Assembly: GCA_963804645.1 (NCBI GenBank)
Contig: CAWDRG010000022.1
Coordinates: 111,642-175,641, forward strand
DNA length: 64,000 nt
Source of the DNA: an uncultured Bacillota bacterium
Lineage (GTDB): Bacteria; Sysuimicrobiota; Sysuimicrobiia; Sysuimicrobiales; Segetimicrobiaceae
Reading direction: 5' to 3'
The notes below the pieces were generated by a model. That model searched no databases and had not been told where the DNA came from. It saw only the letters and a program-made list of their open reading frames with translations. The position numbers were made by a program, and so were the translations under genes. This document shows, piece by piece, positions 18,672 through 38,633 of this stretch. Positions within the stretch are counted from its first letter, which is position 1; each line of letters starts with the position of its first letter.

Positions 18672-19406
18672 CTACGTCTTGGGCACCACGAGCGGTGTAA
18701 CGAACGCTTCCCGGACCCAGACGTTCGGCCCGGTGGCCAGAACGGACCGGACCACCTGGGCGACATCATCGGGACGGAGCGCCCAGTCACGGCGCGCCAT
18801 GTTGTCCGAGAACTCCGTCCGGACCGACCCGGGTTCAACTACGCTTACCTTCACGCCGCTCTGTCGGACCTCCAGACCCACCGCCTCAGTGAACCCAATC
18901 ACGCCAAACTTCGAGGCTGAGTAGGCGGCGCTTTCCGCCATTCCCAGGCGGCCCGCTCCCGAGGCGATGTTGATAATGTGCCCGTGACGCTGCGCGATCA
19001 TCACCGGCAACGCGGCCCTGGTAAAAAGAAACACCCCGGTCAGGTTGACGTTCATCAGACGCCGCCACGCATCGACCGGCATGGTATGGGTCGGTCCATG
19101 CCATCCGATCCCCGCGTTGTTAACCACGGCATCTAGCCGGCCTCCCCACTCTTGCGCGTGGGCGACCGCCGCCGCAGCGGTCGCCTCATCGGCCACGTCG
19201 CCGGCAACCCCCGCCGCCCGGTTCTCGCCGATTTCCTGGGCGACCCGGGCGAGATCGGTCTCCGTCCGCGAGACCAGGATGATCCGGGCTCCCGCAGACG
19301 CGAGTTCTATGCTCACCGCGCGCCCGATGCCTCGTCCCGCGCCGGTCACGATGATAACCTGATCAAGAAGCTCCTGACCCATCTCCGCACCTCCCGCCGC
19401 GCTCAT
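18672..19406 (-). CDS. SDR family oxidoreductase
   Basis: TGAGRGIG, NNAG, YSASK. Confidence 0.92.
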   Translation of the reverse strand: MSAAGGAEMGQELLDQVIIVTGAGRGIGRAVSIELASAGARIILVSRTETDLARVAQEIGENRAAGVAGDVADEATAAAAVAHAQEWGGRLDAVVNNAGIGWHGPTHTMPVDAWRRLMNVNLTGVFLFTRAALPVMIAQRHGHIINIASGAGRLGMAESAAYSASKFGVIGFTEAVGLEVRQSGVKVSVVEPGSVRTEFSDNMARRDWALRPDDVAQVVRSVLATGPNVWVREAFVTPLVVPKT

Positions 19407-19554
19407 GCGATATATGGTTCAACCTGCTGTGTCGAGGATCGTACCAGCATGCGCTGTAGCAACAACTCCCAGCAACAACCGGGCCACCAAGCATATTGCA
19501 ACGCGTCTCATCATCGTTGATCACGTCTGGAATACGGCCTAGGAACTAAGTTTC

Positions 19555-19803
19555 GGCTCTACCGGGTTTCCCGTGGGTAAAAGTCGGCCGCTTCCTAATG
19601 GATGGAGGATCGCTCTCAGAAGCATTCGGCCTGCCGGTCATATTAGCCCTTTCCCGAGACCAAGGCCGTCAACGGCTGCGCAGCGGGCCACAGGCTTTGC
19701 CGTTAAACGCCGCGGAAGCGGAAGAGTTGCTTTGCAAATGACCGGCAGGCGTCTTGTTTTCGTACCCATGTTCGCCTTTGCCCACACGATTGCCGGACGA
19801 TCC
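19555..19803. mobile_element. Non-autonomous ISL3-type miniature element or remnant
   Basis: GGCTCTACCGGGTTTCCCGTGGGT at left and GCCCACACGATTGCCGGACGATCC at right resemble the ISL3 IRs in inverted orientation; no ORF and no clear TSD. Confidence 0.55.
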
Positions 19804-19963
19804 GAAAAGGAAAGGGAGTCGCGGGTGGCAAGAGGTGCGCTGCCATGCGTAGTGTTTCTCAAAGCTTCGAGGCGAACCGGAAAGCATGTGTGATGTGATG
19901 ATGCCCCACGGTGCCAAAAATCGTGCAAACGAGTGAACAACCTTGCAGATAAAACCTGAGGCG

Positions 19964-19994
19964 TGGTGGACCCGATCTCAAAGAATTCGAACCG
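19964..19994. mobile_element. Putative serine-integrase attachment junction (core plus P' arm)
   Basis: TGGTGGA core followed by CCCGATCT-CAAAGAATTCGAACCG; the last 16 nt are the exact reverse complement of 23896-23911. Confidence 0.7.
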
Positions 19995-20298
19995 TTGCGG
20001 AAGTCCCCATCCAGTGGCCCTGCTCGACACCGGTGCAGTACCAGTGTACCAGCAAATCGCCCCGACGGCGCTTCATCTGCGGCAACTTGGCCTCGCGCGC
20101 GCAACTGAGCCCTACCCCTGCCTCGACAGTCGGTCTCGCCGGGTGTGCCACAGTGCGCTGAAGGACGTCACGTACGAGCGAAGGAGAGAAGAGGCGGTTA
20201 CGAAGTAGGTCGACGATCGCCCGTTCCATGAACGCCCGACGCACCACCGACCCTCATTCGTCTTCAGCCCGTCCCCGAAATGGAATGCCGCCGGGCAG

Positions 20299-21801
20299 TT
20301 AGCACGAACGGGTATCCGGAGGTACCCGTCCCTGCGCGTTCTGCGCACCTCGCAGACAGCTCATTAGTGAGTCAAGCGTGCGGAGATGTTCGAGGTCATG
20401 AAGCACCAGCCCTATGAGCTGCGTCCGACCCTCCGCAGACAAGCGCCCACTGGTCATTTCTGTAAACTTGGCGATGAGGTCACCGTCCGTGAACTTCGCG
20501 TCGGGAGGGCCCCACATGTCGCCGTATGCAAAGTCCGTCCGGAGCACAAAGCTTCGCTGCCGGCTTCGAAGCTCGATTTCACATGGCGCCTTTTTGAATA
20601 CATCCGCAATCGAGGACCCCGTCCACGGACGATAGTGCACTTCCGTCCCAGGTGGATTTCCTTCTACCCGAACCTTGGCCATCAAACGCTGAATTTCCGG
20701 GTCTCGACTCAGTGACAGGTCCACCCACTTGGGGCCTGGAATAATGCCTCTAAGTGCCAGCGCAACGGCAAATACCCCGCTCATATGGACGGCTTCTTGC
20801 GTGTCGGGCGGACCACCCTCGTTCGGGCGGTCCAGTCCGGCAGGCCCGGAAAACCGCAGCACAATCTCATCGATTTGCGTCACAGAGAGGTGTTCGGCAT
20901 TTCGGAGCCTGGACAACAGCCACAGGTGTGGTCGATACAGATTGCATACCGGCTCTGGTTTATACGAGAGCCAGCGCATGCACTCCCACGTGTGCCCGAG
21001 ATCTTCTAGCAGATACTTGGGTTCAAATCGGTGGGTATTCCACAGCGCCGGTAACCCATTGGGATCGTCCAATACGCTTGTATCTCCCGTATACCCGCGG
21101 GCCGCGAGGAACGCCGCCGATACGCCGACCTGAGCTGTCCATCCCATTGGAGAATACTTGACCATGGAAAACGGACGAGTGCGTAACCATTTAAGCAGAC
21201 TGGGGCCGGGGCTAAGGTATGTTGCCAGTCCCACCGCCTGTGTCATGCGTCCTACGTCAAGTCGCAACAATCTTCCAACCCCAACGGCCACGCCGAGCGC
21301 CCCATATCCATACCCAAACACTGGCCCGATCGCATACCGCGTCTTCAACCCGTCATGTCCCTCAAGCAAGGGGGCCATCGCCATCGTGAGACGCGCCGCG
21401 ATCTCGTAACCGATCAAGACAGCCTCGACCACGGATCGACCACTGGCCTTGACGTACTCCCCCGCCGCGAGAATGCCTGCGAGCACGCTTGGAACATGGT
21501 GTGCAACGTTCAAAAATACGGCGTCTCCGTCTAGCGCGTTGGCAAGTTCCGCATTGGCAAACGCTGCGCGGTCGACAGCGGTTTGAGACGTCATCCCAAC
21601 CACGGTCGCCTGCGGGGCTCCGGACATATCCTCTACGAATCCTGCAGCCAACCGCCCCTTTTCCGTCGCCCACCCACCGACCATGCACCCCAGGGTATCG
21701 AGAATGAGTCGTTTGACCTCGTAAACCAAGGCGTCCGATAGTCCAAGTTCCTGCTCAAGTGATCTGGCAGCAATCGTCTGTATTAGGTTCACCATATGCA
21801 C
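20299..21801 (-). CDS. MmgE/PrpD family protein
   Basis: VKRLILDTLGC..GG, AAFANAELANALDGD, IGYEIAARL, AARGYTG, YKPEPVC. Confidence 0.85.
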   Translation of the reverse strand: MHMVNLIQTIAARSLEQELGLSDALVYEVKRLILDTLGCMVGGWATEKGRLAAGFVEDMSGAPQATVVGMTSQTAVDRAAFANAELANALDGDAVFLNVAHHVPSVLAGILAAGEYVKASGRSVVEAVLIGYEIAARLTMAMAPLLEGHDGLKTRYAIGPVFGYGYGALGVAVGVGRLLRLDVGRMTQAVGLATYLSPGPSLLKWLRTRPFSMVKYSPMGWTAQVGVSAAFLAARGYTGDTSVLDDPNGLPALWNTHRFEPKYLLEDLGHTWECMRWLSYKPEPVCNLYRPHLWLLSRLRNAEHLSVTQIDEIVLRFSGPAGLDRPNEGGPPDTQEAVHMSGVFAVALALRGIIPGPKWVDLSLSRDPEIQRLMAKVRVEGNPPGTEVHYRPWTGSSIADVFKKAPCEIELRSRQRSFVLRTDFAYGDMWGPPDAKFTDGDLIAKFTEMTSGRLSAEGRTQLIGLVLHDLEHLRTLDSLMSCLRGAQNAQGRVPPDTRSC

Positions 21802-21860
21802 ACCTCGTGGTTCGATAAGCCCGGCGTCACGGGCTCCGACGATAGAGTGCAGATCTTAGC

Positions 21861-22015
21861 TTATCGCGCACGCGGATCAAGGGAGTCACGAAGTGCGTCC
21901 CCGAACGAGGCGACCACGACAACTATCAGGGGTAGAAAGATTCCCGGCATCGTCGAAATCCACCGTACGCTATCCAAGGAGTTGCGGCCCTGACTAATTG
22001 TGACTCCCAGTGAAG
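21861..22015 (-). pseudogene. Peptide ABC permease (DppC-like) C-terminal fragment
   Basis: PSLGVTISQGR....WISTMPG....GDALRDSLDPR. Confidence 0.7.
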
Positions 22016-22252
22016 GGGTCGATGAAGCGGATTTGCGGGGATGAGCTCGTAGTCGACCGCGGCGGACGATCAGAAAGGCGACCAGGTTCAGGATCGTCTG
22101 CTCGGATAGGATTGGCCGGTCGAGATTCGGATTCTCCCACGTAGTAGACAGCGACGCGAACATGCTGCAATGCGCTTGTCCTCCCGGCTGGTCACGGTGC
22201 GTCCTCGTCTCGCGGCTAACTCGTCCGCACCTCCACGCTCGTCGACCGGGTT

Positions 22253-23140
22253 CTATGCTCGCTCTGCGCTCGGGGTACCGGTCCGAGGCCGGCGGACCAG
22301 AGCGCCGCCCGCAGGCCACAGCGCGTCGCGCAGTTCGGGGCGCTGCCATTGGGTCAGCACCCCAGCCTTGGCGCCATTGCGCCGCTGCGAGTCCACCCGG
22401 TCATCCTGGGCGCGCAGGTCGCGGATGCGGTCCAGGCCAATCTCTACGAGAAACAGGCCCGGCTGCGTGGTCTCAAAGATAATCTCCTCGGGGGCGGCGA
22501 CCATTGCCAGTCCCCGTTGCTCCCGTCCAAAAAGGTTCTGGGTCGTTGCCACGATGGCCAGGTTTTCGATTGCGCGCGCCCAGATGAGACAGCGCCACGA
22601 GGCCCACAGCTGCTGCTTATCGGTCCCCGCCGGTAGGAAAATCATTTCAGCGCCCCGCAGCGCCAAGGCGCGGCTGACTTCCGGCATATACACCTCGCTG
22701 CACATGGCGAGGCCGATCGTCCCGTACTCGGTATCGAACACCGGGAATTCGTCCGCGGCGACGTAGTCGAAATCCCAATCGGTCCCGCCACGGTAGATCC
22801 AGGGTCCGGGCGGATAGGTCCGCCGGTATCGCCCCGGCGACCCGCCGGTCGGGCGCGCCAACAAGAGCACGTTGTACGCCCGTCGCGTGCCGTCGTTAAA
22901 CGGCTCGAGCGTTCCGAACACGACATACACGCCGTAGCGCGCGGCGGCCTCTGTCATCTGCGGTATCGGATCAAACAGCGTCGGCACCCGCCACGGCCCG
23001 GGGTAGGTCTCCGGAAACAAGACAACCTGGGCGCCCTGTTGCGCCGCTGTCTCGATGTGCCGCACAGCGGCCGCCACGTTGCGTTCGTCGTTCGGTGGCC
23101 GGTGCGCTAGTGGCTGTACTATCGCAAGCGTGCAATTCAT
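22253..23140 (-). CDS. Carbon-nitrogen hydrolase family protein
   Basis: LFPETYPG, YRRT, MCSEVYMPE, ARAIEN. Confidence 0.85.
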   Translation of the reverse strand: MNCTLAIVQPLAHRPPNDERNVAAAVRHIETAAQQGAQVVLFPETYPGPWRVPTLFDPIPQMTEAAARYGVYVVFGTLEPFNDGTRRAYNVLLLARPTGGSPGRYRRTYPPGPWIYRGGTDWDFDYVAADEFPVFDTEYGTIGLAMCSEVYMPEVSRALALRGAEMIFLPAGTDKQQLWASWRCLIWARAIENLAIVATTQNLFGREQRGLAMVAAPEEIIFETTQPGLFLVEIGLDRIRDLRAQDDRVDSQRRNGAKAGVLTQWQRPELRDALWPAGGALVRRPRTGTPSAERA

Positions 23141-23895
23141 CCCGTCACTCCACGCAAAGCAGCTTGGCTACCCAACGCCTTGGCTTCTGTATCTGGGCCG
23201 AGCCTGGGGTTCCGGACGAACGTCAGCGGCACCCCCATGTTCCCGCAGTCGATTCCGCACCACGCACTGAGTGGTGATGGTCGCGGTCCGCGTACCGGTC
23301 GGGGTCGTTGACAGCTCCCCGTGCGGGAGACGCGTCTGGGCCACGGAACGCCGCCCCCAGCGGTCGTAGGGCACGGGTTCGTCCTGGGGGTGGGGATTCC
23401 TCCCGGCCGGACGCCTTCCGTCAGTACGCCGCCTCCAGGGCCCGTGTGGCGGCTCTGGAGTTCCGCTTGATCGCGCGGACCCACTCGTAGATCGCGTTGC
23501 GGAATCTCCACCGAGGCTCATGGAGCTCCATGTCCACCGCCAACCCATGCGTTCGGCGTCGCGGTCTGCATGGCGGCGCGCTGGATGCTCTGCAGCCCGT
23601 ATCAAGAAGCGAGGATGGCCGAATGACCGGCGCGGGCATGGACAGAAGTGAAGCGCCAGTGCTGCCAGTCCGCTGACGCGTTGCGCATGTCCCCGGGGAT
23701 GGGATCCAGCGCGGAAGCCACCTCCCCAACGCACGGTCATCCCAAGAACCGTGGAAGGCACCGGTCGAGGTCTGAGCACGCCGGTTCTATCATGAACCCG
23801 TGGGAATGCCGGCCGACACGCTTTCACAGGTCGCGTTGTCCGTCAATATCCTGACGCCCATTGGGCACGCCGGGCCAAGACGAAGTGCGGGGAGG

Positions 23896-23943
23896 CGGTT
23901 CGAATTCTTTGCGCTGGTGGAGGCGGCGGGAATCGAACCCGCG
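23896..23943 (-). repeat. Perfect tmRNA 3'-end copy (23915-23943) with adjacent att arm (23896-23911)
   Basis: 29/29 identity to 39623-39651, preceded by CGGTTCGAATTCTTTG-CGC. Confidence 0.92.
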
Positions 23944-23948
23944 GCCAG

Positions 23949-23985
23949 TTGACATCATGATGCCGATCACGATAGCATCATGATG
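23949..23985 (+). promoter_or_regulatory. vapBC promoter with twin palindromic operators
   Basis: TTGACA-N18-TAGCAT; CATCATGATG at 23953-23962 and 23976-23985; GTG start 7 nt after the -10 with no RBS. Confidence 0.8.
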
Positions 23986-24230
23986 TGCGAACGACACTTA
24001 CGCTAGACGATGACGTTGCGGTCAGGGTCAAGGCCGAGGCCCGAAAGTCAGGCCGTTCTTTCAAGGAGGTCGTGAACAGTCTCCTCCGTCTCGGGCTGAC
24101 AAAGAAGCATGAGAGCGGCACGATCGACCGTTTCGTCGTGCGAACCCGGCCACTCGGCCGCAGACCGGGACTCAACTACGACAAGATCAGTGAACTGATC
24201 GAGCATGTCGAAGGACCTCTCCATCGATGA
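23985..24230 (+). CDS. vapB: VapB/CopG-type antitoxin
   Basis: MRTTLTLDDDVA......A...GRSFKEVVN..LR.GL; ATGA overlap with vapC. Confidence 0.88.
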   Translation: MRTTLTLDDDVAVRVKAEARKSGRSFKEVVNSLLRLGLTKKHESGTIDRFVVRTRPLGRRPGLNYDKISELIEHVEGPLHR

Positions 24231-24658
24231 TTCTGATCGATGCCAACGTCCTCTTGTACGCGTATAACCCGTCTGCGCAACAACACGGACGCGCGCGGGA
24301 CTGGCTGCAGGACACGCTGAGCAAGCCTGAGCCTACGGGCCTCGCCTGGATCACGATCCTGGCGTTCCTTCGGTTGACAACAAACCCGCGAGTTTTTGAG
24401 ACCCCGTTCCTTCCAGAGGAAGCTATTCCACTCGTTTCATCGTGGCTTGCGAGAACGAACGTCATCGTATTGCAGCCAGGTGAGCATCACTGGCAGATTT
24501 TTGCCAATCTCCTCACGGCTACGCGCGCGCGCGGCGCGCTCGTGATGGATGCGCATCTCGCCGCACTTGCAATAGAGCACGGCGCCAGCCTCGGAACGAC
24601 AGACAACGATTTTGCGCGGTTTCCAGGTCTTCGTGTGATCAACCCGCTAGAAGAGTAG
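24227..24658 (+). CDS. vapC: VapC PIN-domain toxin
   Basis: MILIDANVLLYA, FLRLTTNPRVF, DAHLAALAIEHG, TTDNDFARFPGL..INPL. Confidence 0.92.
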   Translation: MILIDANVLLYAYNPSAQQHGRARDWLQDTLSKPEPTGLAWITILAFLRLTTNPRVFETPFLPEEAIPLVSSWLARTNVIVLQPGEHHWQIFANLLTATRARGALVMDAHLAALAIEHGASLGTTDNDFARFPGLRVINPLEE

Positions 24659-24691
24659 CCCGTCCGCGGTAGGATGGTAAACTTGACTTCT

Positions 24692-24719
24692 TGGTGGAGG
24701 CGGCGGGAATCGAACCCGC
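24692..24719 (-). repeat. tmRNA 3'-end copy
   Basis: 28 consecutive identities to 39623-39650. Confidence 0.92.
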
Positions 24720-24800
24720 CGTCTTTCTGGACCGCCGTATCCGAGGCGTTTTCAGGAGAGAGCCGGTTTGCCGCACACGATGAGCAGTCGCGCGCACCGA

Positions 24801-25340
24801 TCATACGCCCGGCGCCTTGTCTTTGGGGAACTCCTCGCGGCGCCAGACGAACCCGAGGTAGTCCAAGTTCTGTGCTTCGACGCCAAGTTGTCGCAACATC
24901 GCCATCACCTGCGCGCGGTGGTGCGTTTCGTGTAGGAGCATCTGAGTCGCGAGGTCAGCCTTGGTCATGGTCCACACGATGACCATGTCGCCTTCCTCGA
25001 TGCGGCGAGTCACGGTCCGGGTCCAGTCAGAGATTCCAGCCAGCGTCGCCCGTGTTTCTCTAGCCTGCGTCGTCCAAAATCTCTCGAGATCGGCAAACGT
25101 CGGCAAATTCGTCTCACTAACGGGGAAGGTTGCGGGCAGCGGCGGAGCCGGCACCGGTTCTTCGCGCAACCGCTTTCCGTAGACCAGTTCTGCCCTGACG
25201 ATCTCAAGCAACGTGGCGCGTAGCGTGCCGAGCCCGAACGGAAACCGCTGCGTATACTGCGCCTGGCTAAGTGGGCGGACCCAATTGAAGAGCCGTTGGC
25301 GGGCTTGCGTCAACACGTCGTACACACGAGGGTATTCCAC
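24801..25340 (-). CDS. DinB family protein
   Basis: GTLRATLLEI..AE, QMLLHETHHRAQVMAMLRQLG; GGAGGT RBS before GTG 25340. Confidence 0.85.
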   Translation of the reverse strand: MEYPRVYDVLTQARQRLFNWVRPLSQAQYTQRFPFGLGTLRATLLEIVRAELVYGKRLREEPVPAPPLPATFPVSETNLPTFADLERFWTTQARETRATLAGISDWTRTVTRRIEEGDMVIVWTMTKADLATQMLLHETHHRAQVMAMLRQLGVEAQNLDYLGFVWRREEFPKDKAPGV

Positions 25341-25556
25341 GGCGTCACCTCCGTAGCCCGATACTTCTTTCACCTGCGCGGCCTCGGAAACCTATGACGC
25401 CCCTGCGTTTGAGACGTCCCACAAGGGCGAGAGCGCGCTTGCGATTCATTCCTTTTAGCAACATGCGCGCCGCGTCGGGATCGTACCAAGGATAACGCCC
25501 CCATTCTTCGAACAAACGAACCACGATTCGTTCGACATCCGCGAGGAGAACAGAGC

Positions 25557-26297
25557 ATGAAATGGCCGCTGTGGCTGAAACGGGCGACCATGGCCCTTGT
25601 GTGTGGAGGCGGGGTGTTTCTAGGGGCAGGCGCGGCACAGGCCATCCCGGTGACCTTGACCGGAACCGCGTGGCTTAACCAACCCGCCTCAGTGTCCATG
25701 AATGCGTCGCTTCCCACTCCCGCCTTCCCGCCGGATCTGACGTTTACGGTGACAACGAGCAACGATCTCTTCTTCAGCTCGTGCTTGACTCTTTCGCCCA
25801 GTGGGGTATGTACGGCGCCGACGAATGCGTATACCGTCGGCACTTGGTTGAACACCCCGCCCGTCGTCGGTACGCAGGTCCTCGGGAGCTTTGCTAGCCC
25901 CAGCGGGTTGGGCGTCGCGAACGCCCTGGCCAATACCGTGGACAACTCGTACTGGGACTTTCAGGGGATCGTAAACGTGACGAGCGGCGAGGTGTTCACG
26001 GTGACCCACGACGACGGCGCGACCTTCCTCGTCAATGGCGTTGCTATCCCAGGCATCAGCCCGAACCCGACGGGACCAATCCAGGACATCATCACGTATA
26101 CTGGCCCGACCCTCGCCAACGCGTTGTTCGAGATGGTCTACAGTGAGTGCTGCACCGCTCCGGCGGTATTCGAAACCGACTTCCCTACCTGTGGGTGTAT
26201 CATCACTCCAGTTCCTGAACCCGGCAGTCTGGCGTTGCTCGGCACCGGCGCCTTTGGGCTCATCGCATTCGCCCGGAGACGTTTCCGAGTACTGTAG
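25557..26297 (+). CDS. PEP-CTERM sorting-domain surface protein
   Basis: Signal peptide; Thr/Pro-rich body with THDDG; C-terminal VPEPGSLALLG-TM-RRR. Confidence 0.88.
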   Translation: MKWPLWLKRATMALVCGGGVFLGAGAAQAIPVTLTGTAWLNQPASVSMNASLPTPAFPPDLTFTVTTSNDLFFSSCLTLSPSGVCTAPTNAYTVGTWLNTPPVVGTQVLGSFASPSGLGVANALANTVDNSYWDFQGIVNVTSGEVFTVTHDDGATFLVNGVAIPGISPNPTGPIQDIITYTGPTLANALFEMVYSECCTAPAVFETDFPTCGCIITPVPEPGSLALLGTGAFGLIAFARRRFRVL

Positions 26298-26416
26298 TCG
26301 CCAGAAGTGGTCGCTGAGATGGGTCGCCGCACGTGACGTTCTTCTCCCCGGCGATCAGCGGCGAGGACTATTCTGTTACCCGTCAGTATACGCTCCAATC
26401 GTATTGCTCTTCGTCG

Positions 26417-26770
26417 TCAGTTACTGTCGGTCTCCTTTTGATGTGAACCGGACGCGGCCTCCTCGAGGTCTTCAAACTGCGTGATCTCGTAGTCTCCCTC
26501 AGGGAACTCCGCGATGATTCGCAATCGACCATGCATGGCTTCCACATAACTGCGAAGGGTGCTGATATAGGCGTCGGTGCGATGTTCTAACTTCGAGATT
26601 TCACCTTGCGAGGTATTCATATCCTTTGCGAGTGTTTGCTGCGAGAGTGTACGCGCACGCCGCAACTCTTGAAGAGGCATGGCGGCGAGAATAGCCTCTG
26701 CACGCTCCTTTGCGCGAACCTGGCGATCTAGCGGCATTTTCCCACGTAGACGAGCGAACTTTTTAGCCAT
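26417..26770 (-). CDS. XRE-family antitoxin (HigA-like)
   Basis: LQELRRARTLSQQTLA....SQGEISKLEHRTD.YISTLRSYVEAM.G. Confidence 0.88.
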   Translation of the reverse strand: MAKKFARLRGKMPLDRQVRAKERAEAILAAMPLQELRRARTLSQQTLAKDMNTSQGEISKLEHRTDAYISTLRSYVEAMHGRLRIIAEFPEGDYEITQFEDLEEAASGSHQKETDSN

Positions 26771-27140
26771 GTCGCTGCTCCTCTCGGCCTATCTCCGCTA
26801 AGTGTTCATCATAAAGACGATCGGCGACTGGGATATACGAGCTGTAAAACTCTTCATCTGTAAACCCCTTCTTGTCGGCCCCGATAAACAAGATCGCAGT
26901 CCGACGTGGATCGAAAGCGTACAGGATTCGAATGGGATGTCCCCGGCTCTGAACGATGCGCTCGCGCATGTTCCGATGCCGGGAGCTTTTGACAGTATCC
27001 GCGTGAGGCCGCATCAATGCCGGACCACGAGCCTCAAGCAAGTGTACAAACACGTCAATGTCCTCTTGAGTCTCGGCATCTAAAGTGGTCCACCACTCTT
27101 CAAACTGGTCTGTGTATTCGACCTCCCACGGACCGACCAT
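26763..27140 (-). CDS. RelE/ParE (HigB/Gp49-like) toxin
   Basis: WEVEYTDQFEEWW, GPALMRPHADTVKSSRHRNM, RILYAFDPRRTAIL; toxin-first order; start trimmed to ATG 27140. Confidence 0.88.
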   Translation of the reverse strand: MVGPWEVEYTDQFEEWWTTLDAETQEDIDVFVHLLEARGPALMRPHADTVKSSRHRNMRERIVQSRGHPIRILYAFDPRRTAILFIGADKKGFTDEEFYSSYIPVADRLYDEHLAEIGREEQRHG

Positions 27141-27371
27141 GGCTGAAGTATAGGGGGGGGAGGGAATTATTCTGTCAAGCCTATGTCGCGGTGGTGCGAG
27201 GCGGGACCAAGGAGCCCCCACCCTAGCCCTTGTGGAATAAGGCTTAGCGATGCCTCGCGGTACGTGGGCGTGGGGGGGACCGCACGAACGCGGGAAGCAC
27301 CGCACAGTGCGGGCACCGGCATCAACGTTCAGCCCACCGCAGCGTCGTGCAGTCGGATGCAGCCGAGTACG

Positions 27372-27400
27372 TGGTGGAGGCGGCGCTAATCGAACCCGCG
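27372..27400 (-). repeat. tmRNA 3'-end copy
   Basis: 27/29 identity (GG to CT change in the T-stem). Confidence 0.88.
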
Positions 27401-27489
27401 GCCTGTGCTCCTCTTCGACACTTTGCCAGCGGATCTCGATGCGGACCCGCGTCGGGCCAATATTGTACGTGGCAAGCGGGCGCTGATGA

Positions 27490-27513
27490 GTATATACTAA
27501 GTGTGTATACAAT
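27490..27513 (+). promoter_or_regulatory. Displaced promoter/operator of vapBC at 28918
   Basis: GTATATAC and GTGTATAC boxes with TATACT/TACAAT; would sit about 30 nt before vapB if the IS were removed. Confidence 0.65.
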
Positions 27514-27532
27514 GTCATTGGTGTCGGAGGAA

Positions 27533-28901
27533 GAGCTCTAGTCAAGAGATGTGGAAATTGCATCAAGCGGCGCCCTTCCTTTTCTTCGCTGACTCGAGCG
27601 CTTCCACGCCATTGACGAACTGAACGCCCTCGAGCACCTTGGCCACCAAGTGCGGTGCGTCGATTCGTCGCCACCGCTGCTCTGCACGGCGGATAAGTTG
27701 GAAGACGAGGTACAATCCAGTCTGCGCCTTACGCATGCGGCGTGTCGCGCGCGTGCGCAGTCGCACCGGATCAAAGACCGACTCGATCGGATTGGACGTC
27801 CGAAGACTCTTCCAGTGCTCCCGCGGGAACTCATAGTACGTGAGCAGCTCGGCCTGATGATCCCGGAGGGAAGCCACCGCACGCGGGTAATCTCGCTCGA
27901 AGCGGAGCGCGAATTTCGTGATCCGGGCTTCGGCCTCGTCCCGCGTGGGCGCGGTGTAGACGTCCCGCACGAGCGTGCGGGCCTCCGGCTGCAGGCGCTG
28001 CGGTAGCTTATCGAGCACGTTGAGCATCTTGTGACACCAGCAGAGTTGATGCCGCGCCGTCGGATACACCTCCCCGACCGCCGCCCAGAGTCCCAGGCCG
28101 CCATCCCCAATGAACACGCGCACGGTTTTGAGGCCACGCCGGCGCAGATCCCGCAACACATCGCGCCAGCTCTCGCGAGACTCGCGATAGCCTTCGACCA
28201 TTGCCAGGAGCTCTTTCTGGCCGTCCTCCGTCACGCCGATGATGATCAGCACGGCCGTCTTCTCGTCGGCCGGCCCGGCTTTCAAGTAGAGCCCGTCGGC
28301 CCAACAATAAACGTAGCGCGCGTCGAGGCGTCGGTGGGTCCACGTCTCATAGTCCGCCTGCCAGCTGGCTTTCAAGCGGACGATCGACGTCGGACTCAGG
28401 GGCGCGGCCTCTCCCAGAACCGTGCGGAGGGCCGGCTCAAAGTCGCCGGTGGCCAGTCCTTGCAGATAGAGCTCGGGTAACAGGGCGCGGACGGCGTCGC
28501 TCGAGCGCTGATACCGCGGCAGCACGTGGGAGTGAAACGCTTCCGTGGTGTCGCTGACCCGTGGGGGCCGAACCTCGAGCGTCCCGCAACCCACCGCGAT
28601 CTTGCGCGGCTTCCCGGCGCCATTCCGGTACCCGCGCCGCCGTGCCCCGCCGCGCTCATAGCGAGCCCGGCCGAGGAATTCCTCCACTTCTTGCTCTAAC
28701 GCGCCCGCCAGCATGCGCTGCGCGCCCTCACGCGCGAGGACGTCCAACGTCGCGCGTACTTCCTCCTTGTCCAACCCCCCTTGTGGCTGATATCCTGGCA
28801 TTGGCGTACTCCTTTCCCCTCCCCAGCAAGGGAGGTTCCGATGTGGGTGGATCTCGGAAAGGGTACGCCACTTGAATTTCCACACCCTTTGACATTAGCT
28901 C
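27533..28901 (-). mobile_element. IS256-family insertion sequence (copy A)
   Basis: Imperfect 27-bp IRs (GAGCT...GTCAA...TGTGGAAATT); 8-bp TSD CGGAGGAA. Confidence 0.93.
27563..28801 (-). CDS. IS256 transposase
   Basis: YRNG, LPELYLQGLATGDF, WADG.Y.K, GDG.LGLW, LRTSNPIES. Confidence 0.93.
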   Translation of the reverse strand: MPGYQPQGGLDKEEVRATLDVLAREGAQRMLAGALEQEVEEFLGRARYERGGARRRGYRNGAGKPRKIAVGCGTLEVRPPRVSDTTEAFHSHVLPRYQRSSDAVRALLPELYLQGLATGDFEPALRTVLGEAAPLSPTSIVRLKASWQADYETWTHRRLDARYVYCWADGLYLKAGPADEKTAVLIIIGVTEDGQKELLAMVEGYRESRESWRDVLRDLRRRGLKTVRVFIGDGGLGLWAAVGEVYPTARHQLCWCHKMLNVLDKLPQRLQPEARTLVRDVYTAPTRDEAEARITKFALRFERDYPRAVASLRDHQAELLTYYEFPREHWKSLRTSNPIESVFDPVRLRTRATRRMRKAQTGLYLVFQLIRRAEQRWRRIDAPHLVAKVLEGVQFVNGVEALESAKKRKGAA

Positions 28902-28917
28902 CGGAGGAAATCCTGGA

Positions 28918-29148
28918 ATGGCCAAGACACGGGTATTCCAGAGTGGAAATTCGCAGGCCGTACGTCTCCCAAAGCAATTCCAGTTTGACGTAGATGAAGT
29001 CGAGATCTTCCGGCGAGGCGATGAAGTTGTTCTCCGGAAGGTTCCTGACAATCTGACCGGGGCGTTCACCCTGCTCACAGGTCTGTCCAGAGACTTCATG
29101 GCCGGTGGCCGGAGTCAGCCATCTACTCAGAAGCGCCGCGGTCTCTGA
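28918..29148 (+). CDS. vapB: AbrB/SpoVT-type VapB antitoxin
   Basis: TRVFQSGNSQAVRLPKQFQF. Confidence 0.92.
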   Translation: MAKTRVFQSGNSQAVRLPKQFQFDVDEVEIFRRGDEVVLRKVPDNLTGAFTLLTGLSRDFMAGGRSQPSTQKRRGL

Positions 29149-29552
29149 TGCGATACCTAATCGATACGGATACATGCATCGCAGTCGCCAGACAAAGGCC
29201 GATGCACGTTCTCGAGCGGCTCCGGCGACTGAGGCCGGGAGATGTCGGGATGTCGGTCGTGACATACTTGGAGCTGTGCTATGGCGCGCTAAAAAGTCAG
29301 GCCCCGAGCGCGAACTTCGAAAAACTAGCGACACTGGCGGGCTTGATTCCGCCGCTCCCGTTGGAGGCCAATACTGCATCGCACTACGCGCGTATCCGAG
29401 TAAAGCTCGAACGCAGCGGACGGCGTATTGGAGGATATGACATGCTTATTGCTGCCCACGCGTTAACCTTACATTTGATCGTGATAACAAACAACGTCGC
29501 CGAGTTCTCACGAATTCAAGGACTTCGGTTGGAGAATTGGCTGGCACAGTAG
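29148..29552 (+). CDS. vapC: VapC PIN-domain toxin
   Basis: YLIDTDTCI, EL.YGA.KS, IGGYDMLIAAHA, TNNVAEFSRIQGLRLENW. Confidence 0.92.
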   Translation: MRYLIDTDTCIAVARQRPMHVLERLRRLRPGDVGMSVVTYLELCYGALKSQAPSANFEKLATLAGLIPPLPLEANTASHYARIRVKLERSGRRIGGYDMLIAAHALTLHLIVITNNVAEFSRIQGLRLENWLAQ

Positions 29553-29577
29553 ATAAGTCAGTTCGAACTCGTTGCGT

Positions 29578-29603
29578 TGGTGGAGGCGGCGGGAATCGAA
29601 ACC
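29578..29603 (-). repeat. tmRNA 3'-end copy interrupted by IS256 (continues at 30981-30991)
   Basis: Removing the IS and one TSD gives TGGTGGAGGCGGCGGGAATCGAAACCGCG, 28/29 identity. Confidence 0.9.
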
Positions 29604-30980
29604 GAGGTACCCTCAAAGGGTGTGTAAATGCTGAAGGCGGTGTATCCTCCTGAGAGAGAGACCAACAACCAGGCCTTGTCAGAGGCCCAGGGAGGAAACA
29701 CACCGCCATGGACAAGCAGAACACGGATCACGACACGTCGTCAAGTCCCAGCTGGGACAAGTTGGAGGCCTGGGCTCGGATGCAGATCCAGACGTGGTTC
29801 CAGGATCTCCTCGAGGCGGAAGTCACGGAGCTGCTCGGGCGCCGCAAGGCGCAACGCCGACCGGCCGTGGACGCGCCGGCGGGCTATCGCAACGGCTATG
29901 GCAAGCCGCGGCGGCTGACGCTGAGCGCCGGGACGATTACGGTGCGACGTCCGCGCACCCGCGGGCTGGAGGACCGGTTCGAGAGTCGGCTCTTGCCGTT
30001 GTTCGTCCGCCGGACGCGCGAAGTGAACGCCCTGCTGCCGGAGTTGTATCTGCATGGCCTGGCCCAGGGGGATTTGGCGCTGGCGCTGCGCGGGCTCCTG
30101 GGCGAGGCCGCGCCGCTGTCCGCGAGCACGGTGGCCCGGCTCACAGAGAAGTGGCAGGGGGAGTACGAGGCGTGGAACCAGCGCCGGGTGGACGAGCTGG
30201 AAGTGGTCTACCTCTGGGTCGATGGGGTCTATGTCAAGGCCGGTCTGGAGAAGGACAAGGCCGCGCTCCTGGTCGCGCTGGCGGGCTTGAGTGATGGCCG
30301 CAAGGTGCTCCTCGCCGTCGCGAGCGGGCCCCGGGAATCCACGGAGGCCTGGGGCACGTTCCTGCGGGCGCTGCGCGCGCGGGGGCTCTGCGCGCCGAAG
30401 CTGGTGATCGGGGATGGCCATCTGGGGATCTGGGGCGCGCTGCGCGACGTGTATCCGGAGGCGGCGGAGCAGCGGTGTTGGAATCACCGCATCGTCAACG
30501 TGCTGGACACGCTCCCCAAGCGCGCGCAACCGCAGGCCAAGCCCCTCCTGACCGCGATCGCGTACGCGGAGACGCGGGAGGAGGCCGAGCGGCGGAAGGC
30601 CGCCTTCCAGCGCTGGGCCACCGGCCGGGGGCACGAGGACGCCGTGCGCGTACTGGATCGCGACTGGGACCGGTTCGTCACCTTCTACCAGTTCCCCCGG
30701 GAGCACTGGTCACATCTGCGGACGTCGAACCCGGTGGAGTCACCCTTTGCGGCCTTGCGGTTGCGCACGGATGCCGCGAAACGCTTCAAGAAGGTTGCCA
30801 ACGCGCGCGCGATCATCTGGAAGCTGTTGCTGGTCGCGGAGCGCCGCTTCCGACGGCTCACCGCCCCGGAGCGTGCCACTGAGGTCTACCTAGGCGTGAA
30901 GTTCGTGAATGGCGTGAAAGTCACGACCAACGGTCAGGAGGTCGCCGCCTGAAGATTTACACACCTATTGACGGAACCTC
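29604..30980 (+). mobile_element. IS256-family insertion sequence (copy B)
   Basis: 26-bp IRs with 22/26 match; 8-bp TSD TCGAAACC. Confidence 0.93.
29708..30952 (+). CDS. IS256 transposase
   Basis: YRNGYGKPR, LPELYLHGLA, WVDG.YVKAG, GDGHLGIW, LRTSNPVES. Confidence 0.93.
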   Translation: MDKQNTDHDTSSSPSWDKLEAWARMQIQTWFQDLLEAEVTELLGRRKAQRRPAVDAPAGYRNGYGKPRRLTLSAGTITVRRPRTRGLEDRFESRLLPLFVRRTREVNALLPELYLHGLAQGDLALALRGLLGEAAPLSASTVARLTEKWQGEYEAWNQRRVDELEVVYLWVDGVYVKAGLEKDKAALLVALAGLSDGRKVLLAVASGPRESTEAWGTFLRALRARGLCAPKLVIGDGHLGIWGALRDVYPEAAEQRCWNHRIVNVLDTLPKRAQPQAKPLLTAIAYAETREEAERRKAAFQRWATGRGHEDAVRVLDRDWDRFVTFYQFPREHWSHLRTSNPVESPFAALRLRTDAAKRFKKVANARAIIWKLLLVAERRFRRLTAPERATEVYLGVKFVNGVKVTTNGQEVAA

Positions 30981-31620
30981 TCGAAACCGCGACCCCTGCT
31001 CTATCGCCTATCCCTGTCTACCTGCGCATGCGTCTGTAGAGCTTGCTGCGCAATGCGTTCACCCTCTTCTTCGACCACTGTTCATTCGTCCAATTCCGGC
31101 TATGGCTGGCAAGTGGTGTGACAATAGCGTGACAGCCACATCAGATCCTCCGGCCACCTAGTGTCGCTGTGATCGCCCCAAACGGTATCCGACGGCTTGA
31201 ATGGCCCCCGGTGAGGGGATGAGCGATGGAATCGGCGCGGATACCTCCCGACGCGCATCCGCGACGGTCGCATGGGCCTCCTGCCACGGAGCGAGTGCGT
31301 TCCGCATCCTCTGCACCACGTCGACGAACTCGGACGCGATTGACACGTTGACAGTGCCTGCTCCCTTCAACTCGCCGAGCAACCGGCCAAGATTCTAAGG
31401 AAGGACAGAACGGGCTCTTCTGGGGCTCGGGCTGCAGAAGACCGGGGTGATCTTCCGAGACAAGGTGCTCAGGAGTATACTGAGGGTGAGTCGAAAAGCT
31501 AAAGTGAAAATTCCGGCTCAGGAGGGTGGTTTCGGTAGAAGCTGGTGAGGGTCAGGACCGCAGCGCAGCAATCTCCGTGCAGCGGGTCACAGGGTTCATG
31601 CTCGGAGGGGAGGCACCGAT

Positions 31621-33000
31621 ATGCGACGCCGGATGACTGCACTCGTGCTGCTCAGCGCGTTTGCGTTTGTCGTGCAGGGATGGGGCGGACTCGCTCCGAT
31701 TCGGGCCGCCGGCCAGCAAACCGTCCACCTCACCGCCTGGACGATCGGGCCGGATGAACCGTCCTACTACCGCAAGGACAACCTCCTGAGCGCCGCTGAC
31801 GCGCTCAACAAGCAGCTGGCTGCCGAAGGCTCGGGGATCCGGGTCACTCTGGATGCGACCTTCGCCACCGGAGGCGGACAGACGTGGGGCGCGTACAAAC
31901 AGCGGTTCGTGCTGGCTGCGCAGTCGGGGAAGGCTCCCGACATTGTGGCGACCGGGAACGAGGACATCGCGGCCTGGGCTGCTGCTGGCTACGTGATCCC
32001 CTTGGACACGTATGTGAAGCAGTACAAGCAGTTCGCGGACGTCATCCCATCACTCTGGAATGCCACCAAGTTCGATGGGAGAATCTACGCGATTCCGCAA
32101 GATGTCGAGGCGAGACCCCTGTACTTTAGCATGCCGTTCCTGGCGAAGCTCGGATGGTCGCAGGACAAGATCGCGGGTCTGCCCAAGGCGATTGAGGCCG
32201 GCCAGTTCACGCTCACCGACATGTTGCAGACGGCCAAGGAGGCGCAGGACAAGGGGCTCGTGTTGAAGGGATACGGGTGGTGGATCCGTCCGATCAACGG
32301 GCCGGATTATTACATGTACTACGAAGCGTTCGGCGGCAAGATGACGGATGCAAGTGGCAAGTTGCTGCTCGACACCAAGGCGCTCCGTGGTGACTATTCG
32401 TTCTTCCACGACGCCGTGTTCACATATAGCGTGACGCCCAAGGATATCATCGGGACCGATTGGAACAGCTGGCACGGGGCCGTAGTCGGAAAGCAGGTGC
32501 TGTTCACGCAGTGCGGGACATGGTGCTGGGCCCAGTGGATCCAGCAGTACAAAATGCCGGCCGATGAGGTGTGGAAGACGTACGGGTTCGCGCTCGTGCC
32601 CTCGGGCACCAAGGGCGGACGTCCCGTGACCCTGAGTCATCCGATCGTGTACATGATCAGCAAGTCGTCGCCACACGCGGACCTCGCGGCGCGCCTCCTG
32701 GCGCTCGCCACGACCCCGCAACTTAACGCCCGACACGCCGTGACGAGCGGCCATCTCGCGGTGCTCACTGATGAGGCACAGGTACCGGCGTACGCGCAGG
32801 ACACGTTCGCGAAAGATACGATCTACATGCTGCGGTACACGACGTTCTTGCCGAACGACGCACTCTTCGGCACCTATGACCAGGCAATCTGGGAGGGCCT
32901 CTCGGCCGTGGTTTCCGGCAAGATGACGGCGGACCAGGCCGTACAGACAGTCACGCAACAGTTGCAGACGAACCTGAGCGACCACGTCGTTATCCGGTGA
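31621..33000 (+). CDS. Carbohydrate ABC transporter substrate-binding protein
   Basis: Signal peptide, SGKAPDIV, GRIYAIPQDVEARPLYF, VVSGKMTADQA. Confidence 0.88.
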   Translation: MRRRMTALVLLSAFAFVVQGWGGLAPIRAAGQQTVHLTAWTIGPDEPSYYRKDNLLSAADALNKQLAAEGSGIRVTLDATFATGGGQTWGAYKQRFVLAAQSGKAPDIVATGNEDIAAWAAAGYVIPLDTYVKQYKQFADVIPSLWNATKFDGRIYAIPQDVEARPLYFSMPFLAKLGWSQDKIAGLPKAIEAGQFTLTDMLQTAKEAQDKGLVLKGYGWWIRPINGPDYYMYYEAFGGKMTDASGKLLLDTKALRGDYSFFHDAVFTYSVTPKDIIGTDWNSWHGAVVGKQVLFTQCGTWCWAQWIQQYKMPADEVWKTYGFALVPSGTKGGRPVTLSHPIVYMISKSSPHADLAARLLALATTPQLNARHAVTSGHLAVLTDEAQVPAYAQDTFAKDTIYMLRYTTFLPNDALFGTYDQAIWEGLSAVVSGKMTADQAVQTVTQQLQTNLSDHVVIR

Positions 33001-33974
33001 AGCCGTCCCCGGAGAGCCTCTCCGGGAGGCCGGTCACCACGCAGGGTGCCGCCCGGCGTCGATGGACAGCGGGCGGCTATCCTACGTTGTTTCTGGCCCC
33101 CGCCGGGCTTGTCGTGCTGGCGCTGTTTCTCGCGCCAGCATTGCTGACGATCGTCATCAGCCTGACGAACTTGAGCGTGGCGACCGGGCTGACCCATTAC
33201 CGTTGGATCGGGCTGGCCAACTACTCGCAGATCGCCCACAGCCCGTGGTTGAGCCTCATTCTCTGGAACACCCTGATCTATGTGGCCTGCACCCTCGTTC
33301 TGTTCAACGTCGGGCTCGCGCTGGTGCTCGCGCTGCTGACCGCGCATCTGTCGGAGCGAGCGGCCGGAGTGTTCCGCGTCCTGTGGATGCTGCCGCGCAT
33401 CACGCCCTCGGTCGTGTACGCGCTGATGTGGCGGTGGGCCGCCGCCCAGGCTCCGTACGGCACGCTGAGCCAACTCCTAGGGCTTTTCGGCATCCCCGGA
33501 AGGAACTGGATGAACGCGCACCCGTGGGCGTTCGTAATCGGCTTGAACGGGCTTGTCGGTGCGTCGTTCGGCATGATCATCTTCTCGTCCGCGATCACGG
33601 CCATCCCGCGCGATCAGTACCTTGCTGCCCAGGTCGATGGAGCATCGGCCTGGCAGCAGGTGTGGCGGATCACCTTGCCGCGGCTGCGATGGCCGGTTTT
33701 GTTCGTAACAGCGTACCAGACGCTATCGCTGTTGACGTCGTTCGAGTACATCCTGCTGACAACCAACGGGGGCCCCGGGTTCTACACGACCGAGGTGTGG
33801 TCGCTGTACGCGTTCCATCTGGCGCTGTCCAACTACTTCGGGAACACGCAGTTCGGGCTCGGCGCCGCCCTCGCCGCGATTCTCGTGGTCCTCGGCGTCG
33901 GTGCCTCGGTCTGCTACCTCCGGCTCTTCCGGTTCAGCGAGCTCGTGGCGCCGCCACGGATCGAGGTCAACTGA
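32997..33974 (+). CDS. Carbohydrate ABC permease 1
   Basis: IGLANY, EAA-like YLAAQVDGAS.WQ..WRITLP, LTTNGGPG. Confidence 0.9.
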   Translation: MKPSPESLSGRPVTTQGAARRRWTAGGYPTLFLAPAGLVVLALFLAPALLTIVISLTNLSVATGLTHYRWIGLANYSQIAHSPWLSLILWNTLIYVACTLVLFNVGLALVLALLTAHLSERAAGVFRVLWMLPRITPSVVYALMWRWAAAQAPYGTLSQLLGLFGIPGRNWMNAHPWAFVIGLNGLVGASFGMIIFSSAITAIPRDQYLAAQVDGASAWQQVWRITLPRLRWPVLFVTAYQTLSLLTSFEYILLTTNGGPGFYTTEVWSLYAFHLALSNYFGNTQFGLGAALAAILVVLGVGASVCYLRLFRFSELVAPPRIEVN

Positions 33975-33975
33975 G

Positions 33976-34803
33976 ATGCCGGTGGCGGCCCTCCGGTGGC
34001 GCTGGACGATGGGGGCCGCCCTGCTGGTACTGTCGGCCCCCATCGTCCTAACCTACGGATGGTTGGTGATGGCGTCGTTCAGCGTCAGTACAACGGGCAT
34101 TGTTCCGCACGGGTTCACGTGGGACAACTGGCGGTTCTTGTGGAGCACGCTGCCGAACGAGGCGAACGCGTGGGTAGCGGCCACAAACTCGCTGCTCTTT
34201 GCCGTGTCGCTGGCGCTCGCGGAGGTGCTCATCGGCTCGATGGCGGCGTACGCGCTCTCCCGCCTGAACTTCCGCGGACGCGGGGCGTTTCTTGCCTCCA
34301 CCATGGTTCTGCATTCGTTCCCCAGCGTGACGCTCCTCATCGCGATCTTCCTGATTCTCCGCGTTCTCGGGCTCTACGACCAGCTCGGCGGCGTCATCCT
34401 GGTGAAGCTGGCCCTCGACCTGCCCCTCGGAATCTGGATCATGAAGGGGTTTTACGACGCGGTTCCCTGGGACATCGAGATGGCCGCGATGATGGACGGG
34501 TACTCTCGGCTACAGATCTGGTGGCGGGTAATGCTTCCGCTCATCTCGCCGGGGCTGTTCGCGTTCGGCATCTTCGCCTTCCTGAGCGGATGGAACGAGT
34601 TTCTGCTGCCGTACGTGCTGCTGCCGAGTCAGAACTCTCAAACGCTGTCGGTGTTGATGGCCAGCCTGTCCGGGGAGGAGCAGTACGCGGACTACGGGTT
34701 GGTGACGGCGCTCAGCGTATTCTACATCCTGCCCGCGGTCGTGTTCTTTGCGCTGACGCAGAAGTACCTTCTGCGAATTTTCACGGGGGGAGTGAAGGGG
34801 TAG
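33976..34803 (+). CDS. Carbohydrate ABC permease 2
   Basis: AAYALSRLNFRG, EMAAMMDG, WNEFL, GGVKG C-terminus. Confidence 0.9.
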   Translation: MPVAALRWRWTMGAALLVLSAPIVLTYGWLVMASFSVSTTGIVPHGFTWDNWRFLWSTLPNEANAWVAATNSLLFAVSLALAEVLIGSMAAYALSRLNFRGRGAFLASTMVLHSFPSVTLLIAIFLILRVLGLYDQLGGVILVKLALDLPLGIWIMKGFYDAVPWDIEMAAMMDGYSRLQIWWRVMLPLISPGLFAFGIFAFLSGWNEFLLPYVLLPSQNSQTLSVLMASLSGEEQYADYGLVTALSVFYILPAVVFFALTQKYLLRIFTGGVKG

Positions 34804-34804
34804 C

Positions 34805-37224: not shown

Positions 37225-37295
37225 AGGAGACCCGACGACCATTGGGACGCCGTTCTCGATGTGCGGCGCGGGCCCTGCGATCGGTGAGGGCGGCG

Positions 37296-38201: not shown

Positions 38202-38269
38202 TCCCACCCGAAGGGCTCGCTAGCGGAGCGGGCAGCGGTGTGATGAGCGCAATCTCTTTCCGTGAGCCG

Positions 38270-38438
38270 CGATGATTCCGCGACACCCGAACCCGCAGAT
38301 AGGCATACTCCCGAATGTCCCATCCATACATCTTGTCGTACAGGGTGTAGAACCGAGATTGTGGCTTCTTCTCACCTTGGCGTGGAGCTGCCGCTGAAGG
38401 GTCCGAATCCGCTCCGGGATTCCTAAGCTCCTCGCCAA
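38270..38438 (-). pseudogene. Group II intron reverse transcriptase N-terminal remnant
   Basis: SLGIPERIRTLQRQLHAK, then after a frameshift RFYTLYDKMY..DIREYAYLRV (RT0-like). Confidence 0.7.
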
Positions 38439-38501
38439 TCCTCCATCATTTCGCTCCGTTGAACGGCATCTCAGAACTGAGGTCTCTTCCCTCCGCCGGC
38501 T

Positions 38502-38530
38502 TTGTGGAGGCGGCGGGAATCGAACCCGCA
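38502..38530 (-). repeat. tmRNA 3'-end copy
   Basis: 27/29 identity, with 26 consecutive matches. Confidence 0.9.
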
Positions 38531-38588
38531 CCCCCAAGCTTCGTCCCAAGACACTTGGAAATCCCAAGAATAGACCGATCCACATGGT

Positions 38589-38627
38589 ATACATTTTTGT
38601 ATCAAACTAACTACATTATTGTATAAT
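38589..38627 (+). promoter_or_regulatory. Promoter with two palindromic operators
   Basis: ATACA-TTTT-TGTAT (38589-38602), TACA-TTAT-TGTA (38612-38623), TATAAT at 38622-38627. Confidence 0.75.
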
Positions 38628-38633
38628 ATGCCC

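Follow-up and report, generated by a model that had tools for sequence, protein, structure and literature searches.

In a 64,000-nucleotide stretch of the genome of an uncultured Bacillota bacterium (assembly GCA_963804645.1, contig CAWDRG010000022.1; hereafter the window), we identified an element at positions 19964-23921 that is very probably the decayed remnant of an island integrated into the acceptor (3′) end of a transfer-messenger RNA (tmRNA) gene by a large serine recombinase (LSR). The window feature itself is a fossil, and its interest lies in the family of elements that it reveals, which is widespread and little described. A first-pass annotation, made from the sequence alone, had noted two inverted 16-mers around a TGGTGGA core, joined them into an attachment site (attP) and attributed the element to a tmRNA-specific serine integrase whose gene had been deleted.

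The 16-mer CGGTTCGAATTCTTTG occurs in exactly two copies in the window, at 23896-23911 on the plus strand and at 19979-19994 on the minus strand. With up to two mismatches allowed, 0.02 matches are expected, and none of 100 shuffles reached two. The core TGGTGGA is found at 19964-19970 and 23915-23921, with a gap of 3 nt between the right arm and its core and of 8 nt between the other core and the left arm, so that the midpoint of the two 16-mers falls between G and A of the core. The box TCGAACC ends at 19993, 23 nt past the left core, and at 23939, 18 nt past the right core. The exact inverted pair, the symmetry centre at GA and the spacings of 23 and 18 had all been claimed before and hold in every detail. 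Likeness to tmRNA extends over its last 29 nt at 23915-23943 and over just the 7-nt core at 19964. The left and right junctions (attL and attR) have 7 nt in common, without long flanking direct repeats, and the attP rebuilt from the window is a near-perfect palindrome of 48-50 bp with exact 16-nt arms and a dyad centre on G|A.

All parts of the two junctions are read on the plus strand, and half-site positions are numbered outward from the G|A centre. The core at 19964-19970 forms the distal, attL-type junction, with host or older flank to its left. It is followed by the P′ arm (19971-19994), assigned from the inverted 16-mer and the half-site alignment; the T-loop-like box ATTCGAACC spans its half-site positions 16-24. 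The pairing of core and P′ arm recurs in three other relatives with unrelated sequence to the left. At the opposite end, the P arm (23896-23914), which contains the other copy of the 16-mer, codes for the residues GSNSL of an integrase tail. It is joined to the second core and a displaced 29-nt tmRNA 3′ end (B′ half-site, 23915-23943, assigned by its tmRNA match), in which the T-loop box AATCGAACC lies at positions 11-19.

Vestiges of an integrase gene were detected on the plus strand at both ends. The last ~35-45 codons of a serine integrase, with an in-frame stop, are recognizable at 23786-23895 (tblastn of residues 502-562 of a relative, L088, against 23786-23947, E = 4.4e-8), and a vestige of a C-terminal integrase extension (WWTRSQRIRT...VYQQIAP...LRQLGL) lies at 19964-20103 (tblastn E = 2e-12 to the extensions of L139 and L167, in two frames). 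The latter is frameshifted near 20005-20014, and its likeness fades past ~20103. In translation, both vestiges share the TGG TGG reading frame, and nothing of the gene's catalytic and DNA-binding portions is left in the element. The earlier claim of a deleted integrase gene is thus correct for most of the gene, but not for its tail and C-terminal extension.

The functional tmRNA gene, target of the whole island array, was located at 39623-39973 on the minus strand (ARAGORN; Rfam, 152.7 bits). On the plus strand, its 3′ end is repeated at 23915, 24692, 27372 (two mismatches), 29578 and 38502, in addition to the true end at 39623, which marks 19971-39622 as a tandem array of island remnants. Since the window element is the most distal one and abuts the 29-nt tmRNA fragment, it was probably integrated first. 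Later islands would have inserted nearer the tmRNA gene and pushed it 16 kb away, and in the order that we infer, it was elements recombining deeper in the tmRNA 3′ end that displaced it.

Serine recombinase genes beside the arm

In the source genome, the same arm is also found 5 nt from the CCA end after tRNA-Ala(CGC) on contig C15 and tRNA-Met(CAT) on contig C17, and next to the C15 copy is an LSR gene, truncated and frameshifted, that encodes Recombinase and zinc-ribbon domains. A general tRNA trailer was rejected as an explanation, since just 2 of ~50 tRNA genes in this genome carry the arm. We scanned 100 relatives for the arm, five free positions and TGGTGG with one mismatch allowed, using the reversed pattern as a control. 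The arm with its core (GGTTCGAATTCTT-N5-TGGTGG) was present in 12 of the 100 genomes, 11 of them among the 22 genomes of the same family, and the reversed control gave no match. Eighteen sites, three of them from the source genome, were inspected by eye and comprised tmRNA-like (7), tRNA-Ala-like (7), tRNA-Met-like (3) and other (1) ends. At several of these sites an open frame crosses the arm, with a conserved tail that ends in GSNSL-(R/Q)-WW, and in two relatives LSR remnants lie directly upstream of the arm.

A species-wide genome scan for the exact arm pattern yielded 68 loci, representing 67 distinct sites. The right-hand partner was the 3′ end of a complete tmRNA gene at 28 sites, a tmRNA 3′ fragment at 8, tRNA-Ala at 8 and an inverted arm (P-core-P′) at 6; the other 17 include variant tmRNA ends and some likely chance matches. 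Contigs named as at least seven phylum-level groups have a nearly identical tmRNA half-site. At 11 of the 67 sites, at least 500 aligned LSR residues are found immediately upstream, belonging to a near-full-length LSR that reads through the arm, and Resolvase, Recombinase and Zn_ribbon_recom domains were detected in all nine full open reading frames (ORFs) tested beside the arm. The full LSR ORFs open with a serine-recombinase N-terminal motif and run through the arm into antisense tmRNA or tRNA. Homologous arms therefore do adjoin LSR genes at the tmRNA gene, ssrA, a check that had been suggested together with the first claims. The link to a serine integrase and the use of tmRNA stand, but specificity for tmRNA does not, as tRNA-Ala and tRNA-Met ends are used too. 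The majority of the remaining sites retain an LSR tail of 25-160 residues only, which indicates that decay as in the window is the common state.

The arm pattern had no match in 2.9 million viral contigs. A phage origin was rejected on this basis and because the nearest phage or plasmid proteins reach no more than 29% identity and leave the tail uncovered. Also rejected were a minus-strand ORF abutting the P′ arm, which is not conserved across loci, and four other LSR genes of the source genome (on C4, C11 and two on C15) as members of the family, their ends being unrelated.

The P-core-P′ arrangement exists as a single stretch at 6 genome sites and 16 metagenome loci. In these natural sites, the two arms agree for as many as 19 nt, and each site is centred on G|A; the copy at locus L079 differs by 2 bases from the attP joined from the window arms, so the site predicted by joining occurs contiguously elsewhere. 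Furthermore, intact elements with an intact LSR were found in three genomes, with sizes of 2.8, 21.6 and 69.8 kb. They are bounded by core-P′ on one side and by P-core-tRNA-Ala or P-core-tmRNA on the other, and their attL and attR share 7-9 nt. A module of orf190, orf78 and the LSR gene is common to all three, and the 2.8-kb minimal element (L176) contains only an extension stub and this module. The conserved orf190 product (190 amino acids, encoded upstream of the LSR) gave only weak MerR/excisionase-like matches and is, judging by these, a candidate recombination directionality factor. Among the cargo genes of the 21.6-kb element are those of a type I restriction-modification system, and another element encodes TPR-CHAT, caspase and ankyrin proteins; no phage genes were seen in the three elements.

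The split integrase gene and the geometry of the half-sites

Since attP lies within the integrase reading frame, integration detaches a C-terminal extension with a predicted helix-turn-helix. Where P, core and P′ are contiguous, the integrase frame continues without a stop for at least 76 codons beyond the arm in 16 of 21 entries and encodes a conserved extension, predicted as a three-helix bundle with a predicted local distance difference test (pLDDT) score of 90-97 and preceded by a disordered, att-encoded linker. In two of the three intact elements the extension was located at the far end, where its 73-74 codons share the TGG TGG frame of the integrase, while the third is cut to 39 codons. 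Integration swaps the extension for ~20 residues read from antisense tmRNA.

The P and P′ half-sites carry ATTCGAACC at positions 16-24, exact in five of the six P′ arms that were not forced by the search pattern. In the B′ half-site of tmRNA, positions 11-19 are occupied by AATCGAACC (21 of 32) or AGTCGAACC (9 of 32), and in that of tRNA-Ala, positions 13-19 read TCGAACC or TTGAACC (8 of 8). The T-loop boxes of the arms are 5 bp farther from the centre than the real T-loop box in tmRNA. In the model of the LI integrase, a 9-bp zinc-ribbon motif occupies positions 16-24 in attP and 11-19 in the target site, attB (Rutherford et al. 2013, PMC3783163, in the accessible part of that article), in exact agreement with the box positions found here for P, P′ and B′. 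On the evidence of the junction sequences, the crossover is confined to the 7-nt core TGGTGGA. A crossover at GA (U70-C71 of the alanine-type acceptor stem) is what we infer from symmetry alone; of the first-pass placement, the symmetry centre stands, while the sequence data narrow the crossover to the core only. By analogy with LI, the zinc-ribbon domain would read the T-loop-like box.

In the mechanism that we propose, the LSR would insert its island into the acceptor (3′) end of the tmRNA gene, and the 5-bp offset of the boxes would be the attP/attB geometry by which the zinc-ribbon domains distinguish the two sites. The tmRNA would be left intact after crossover in TGGTGGA because the element supplies an identical CACCA end. 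Integration would cut the predicted C-terminal helix-turn-helix domain off the integrase, and the domain would stay behind at the element's opposite end. A later deletion would have removed the integrase gene from the window, sparing only its final codons (23786-23914) and the stub of the extension (19964-20103). A more far-reaching proposal, which we put forward tentatively as a possibility somewhat short of even, is that the LSR family reads two nearly universal features of RNA genes at the DNA level, with the alanine-type acceptor end serving as crossover core and the T-loop box as zinc-ribbon motif, that one attB half-site is enough, so that it could enter the tmRNA gene of very many bacteria, and that excision restores the C-terminal DNA-binding domain as a sensor of the integrated or free state for directionality or expression.

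Several observations count against parts of this account. In the B half-site, i.e., the flank downstream of the RNA gene, nothing is conserved past CCACCA and the box is missing in 8 of 8 attL junctions, so that a canonical two-sided attB was not seen; of the claimed 5-bp shift of the T-loop motif in attB, the positions in P, P′ and B′ fit, but the B half-site has no box. At tRNA-Met sites the core is TGGTGGG, with G instead of A at the seventh position, and GA can therefore not be the shared crossover in this subgroup. The conservation of the P arm is partly imposed by a search pattern that fixes the box, and only the six P′ arms of the genome scan are unforced. Against Pfam, the extension gave sub-threshold helix-turn-helix matches only (HTH_23 in all six sequences, with a top score of 22.8 bits for a cut-off of 24.6 bits), and a fold search returned no significant match (best E = 0.34), with DNA-binding helix-turn-helix domains in all top positions. 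At each of the five P-core-P′ loci checked, the LSR is truncated at its N-terminus, and no live gene for an integrase plus extension was seen. Neither recombination nor an excised circle was seen for the window element, and no empty site for it was demonstrable among 30 relatives. Finally, the two genes inside the element, both on the minus strand, may perhaps not be its original cargo. These are an MmgE/PrpD-family gene at 20299-21801 (Pfam E = 5.5e-44), which may be cargo or have come in later as a replacement, and a carbon-nitrogen hydrolase gene at 22253-23140 (Pfam E = 1.3e-29).

Other explanations were weighed against the same data. It is unlikely, though worth considering, that the island is an LSR island as described but that the crossover is not at GA, that the T-loop-like boxes are not the zinc-ribbon motif and that the arms owe their conservation to something else, for instance to the encoded GSNS...RIRT or to binding by a different domain. 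The comparison of junctions limits the crossover to the 7-nt core and no further, the seventh core position is G at tRNA-Met sites, the B half-site lacks the box, the arms sit in coding sequence, and other tRNA-targeting LSR relatives showed no such arm by eye in 13 of 13 loci. On the other hand, the symmetry centre is on G|A in every contiguous site, the boxes take the positions 16-24 and 11-19 of the solved LI complex (accessible text of PMC3783163), and the P′ arms are nucleotide-identical in five of six unforced sites though their flanks diverge.

That a tyrosine integrase inserted the island, the arms being its arm-type or core-type sites, is very improbable. The tmRNA gene is a classical target of such enzymes, and neighbouring islands of the array carry tmRNA repeats of 23-36 nt, as is typical of such elements. 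However, the window element duplicates just 7 nt, integrase domains of the serine or tyrosine type were found in none of 38 ORFs tested across 17.2-41.6 kb of the window, and elsewhere the arm adjoins LSR genes, not tyrosine integrase genes. We give as little credence to the view that the right arm is a native, conserved tmRNA 3′ trailer and the left copy a chance match or secondary duplication. While the arm does lie directly downstream of 28 whole tmRNA genes, most of them without an integrase, only 12 of the 100 relatives have it, the same arm follows tRNA-Ala and tRNA-Met genes, remnants coding for an integrase tail precede it, and in intact elements its partner at the opposite end is a P′ arm. 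Terminal inverted repeats of a transposon or miniature inverted-repeat transposable element that landed beside a tmRNA-like sequence can practically be dismissed: an exact 16-nt inverted repeat does bracket 3.9 kb and insertion sequence transposases are nearby, but the ends lack a target-site duplication, the interior lacks a transposase, and elsewhere the arm is single and fixed 5 nt from a tRNA or tmRNA CCA end, downstream of an LSR gene.

If the LSR family works as proposed, a sensor of the integrated or free state would be built into the enzyme and help to set directionality or expression, and the split-integrase layout would be a natural switch open to direct test. Serine integrases are leading tools for the insertion of large DNA and normally need a pre-installed landing site. 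An enzyme with the highly conserved tmRNA 3′ end as its natural attB might work without one in many non-model bacteria. Since only 7 nt are repeated, mapping of islands by tRNA-derived direct repeats will miss islands of this kind, and fossil arms and integrase tails beside many tmRNA genes are easily mistaken for trailers or small ORFs.

Further remnants in the window and at related loci

A second, diverged P arm (three differences in 16) followed by a tmRNA 3′-end copy was found at 29559-29600 on the plus strand and is a remnant of another element of the family. No P′ arm pairing with it exists in the window, and its left end therefore appears to be lost. A PIN-domain gene stops 6 nt before this arm. 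The array between 23915 and 39623 also contains PIN/VapC-type toxin modules, a Gp49/HTH pair, two Mutator-family transposases, an ABC sugar transporter and a sulfatase. In the left flank of the window element (19000-19963), the SDR gene alone is conserved among the 30 relatives, never beside a tmRNA gene within the fetched flanks. The intergenic segment 19629-19803, upstream of the SDR gene, shows 73-81% identity to four places in three relatives and has no Rfam match at the gathering threshold.

The C15 locus of the source genome (C15:441362-442447, L010:362-1448) comprises tRNA-Ala(CGC), the arm and the broken LSR gene, with an LSR-tail fragment 11.5 kb off at C15:452970-453326, which suggests another decayed array. 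At C17:319264-319356 (L028), tRNA-Met(CAT) is accompanied by a variant arm, with ACAC for GCGN before TGGTGG, and the core TGGTGGG; the variant was also seen in two relatives. A search of contig C17 for the Recombinase domain (PF07508) found none.

Within the same bacterial order, a tRNA gene adjoins the LSR relative (~31-41% identity) at each of 13 loci examined (L047, L048, L049, L050, L051, L056, L058, L059, L060, L062, L064, L065 and L070). The tRNAs are Leu-GAG (six), Leu-CAA (three), Gln (one), Glu (two) and Met (one), and most or all of the ORFs stop a few codons into the antisense tRNA 3′ end. A T-loop-like arm upstream of the tRNA end was seen by eye in none of the 13. At five sites in metagenome-assembled genomes (L086, L113, L114, L138 and L144), the arm and TGGTGG are followed by a conserved non-tRNA sequence (GGTTGTTGCA...) in place of a tRNA or tmRNA end, and one of the five adjoins an intact LSR of 561 amino acids.

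P-core-P′ junctions lie within chromosomal contigs, sometimes several per contig (three sites in L139, two in L134, and others in L161, L164/L172 and L159). A live excised form at such loci was rejected, since all five integrases checked are N-terminally truncated. For the same reason the five look like fossil junctions within arrays. Chromosomal junctions of this type may have arisen when elements integrated in tandem at an already existing junction or when multimers integrated. Between two attP-like sites, L134:4030-6522 encodes an 831-amino-acid protein with a TOTE conflict-system primase domain and a helicase, a cargo of defence type comparable to the type I restriction-modification system of the 21.6-kb element. 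In the minimal element, short palindromic repeats (ATAGACA..TGTCTAT-like) are located just upstream of orf190 and of orf78/LSR (L176:1270-1300 and 1885-1910) and are candidate operators, from their sequence, for a helix-turn-helix protein of the element.

Comparison with known systems

Classical tyrosine-integrase islands in tmRNA and tRNA genes were reportedly described by Williams in 2002/2003. They and the elements described here have the same target gene, a 3′ end regenerated by the element and tandem arrays in common. In contrast to them, the present family uses an enzyme of another family, has no long direct repeats and has a short palindromic attP. In the integration-dependent immunity of mycobacteriophages, attP also lies inside an ORF and integration alters the C-terminus of its product, with a tyrosine integrase and a split repressor gene; here, it is the integrase gene itself that is split. 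The predicted layout of an attP inside the integrase frame, with a C-terminal domain detached on integration, is new here.

Comparisons with the following publications refer to the accessible parts of their texts. The LI integrase of the Listeria phage A118 resembles the present family in its ~50-bp attP with dyad symmetry around a central dinucleotide (PMC3783163). The attB of LI has the motif in both half-sites, and its target is a protein-coding gene (PMC3783163), whereas here the motif is found on the tmRNA side only and the target is the end of an RNA gene, with attP inside the integrase ORF. The proteins are distant from LI as well, with sequence matches to solved structures limited to the catalytic domain. 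Tycheposons of Prochlorococcus are islands at tRNA and tmRNA genes, of which 27 of 937 carry a large serine recombinase (bioRxiv 10.1101/2020.12.28.424599). Hosts and elements differ from those described here, and the accessible text gives no att architecture for the LSR members (bioRxiv 10.1101/2020.12.28.424599). No published description of the present att architecture was found in the full-text literature, with subscription journals and bioRxiv supplements outside reach, and the literature reached linked no other serine recombinase to ssrA or the T-loop, apart from a study of Dehalococcoides.

In that genus, serine-recombinase (DsiB) islands at ssrA have been published (McMurdie et al. 2011, PMC3146451). 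As in the present family, these islands are found in tandem downstream of a single tmRNA gene, and the dsiB gene (~540 amino acids) lies beside the junction, with its 3′ end overlapping att and reading antisense into ssrA (PMC3146451). Its authors suggest that the gene is perhaps complete only on the circular form (PMC3146451), which would likewise apply to the split gene here, and CcrB is the best NCBIfam likeness in both cases. The Dehalococcoides islands differ in a 20-bp ssrA repeat with an insertion inferred in the T-loop (PMC3146451), in contrast to 7 nt and a centre in the acceptor stem here, and their six-gene module (DsiB, DsiA, RecF-like, ParB-like, Mom-like and an embedded tRNA-like gene; PMC3146451) is not present in the 2.8-kb minimal element. 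A palindromic attP that mimics the T-loop is not described for Dehalococcoides in the accessible text, in which the term "inverted repeat" has 0 occurrences (PMC3146451). On a comparison by description, not by protein sequence, the family reported here is thus set apart from the DsiB islands by its att architecture and its small module.

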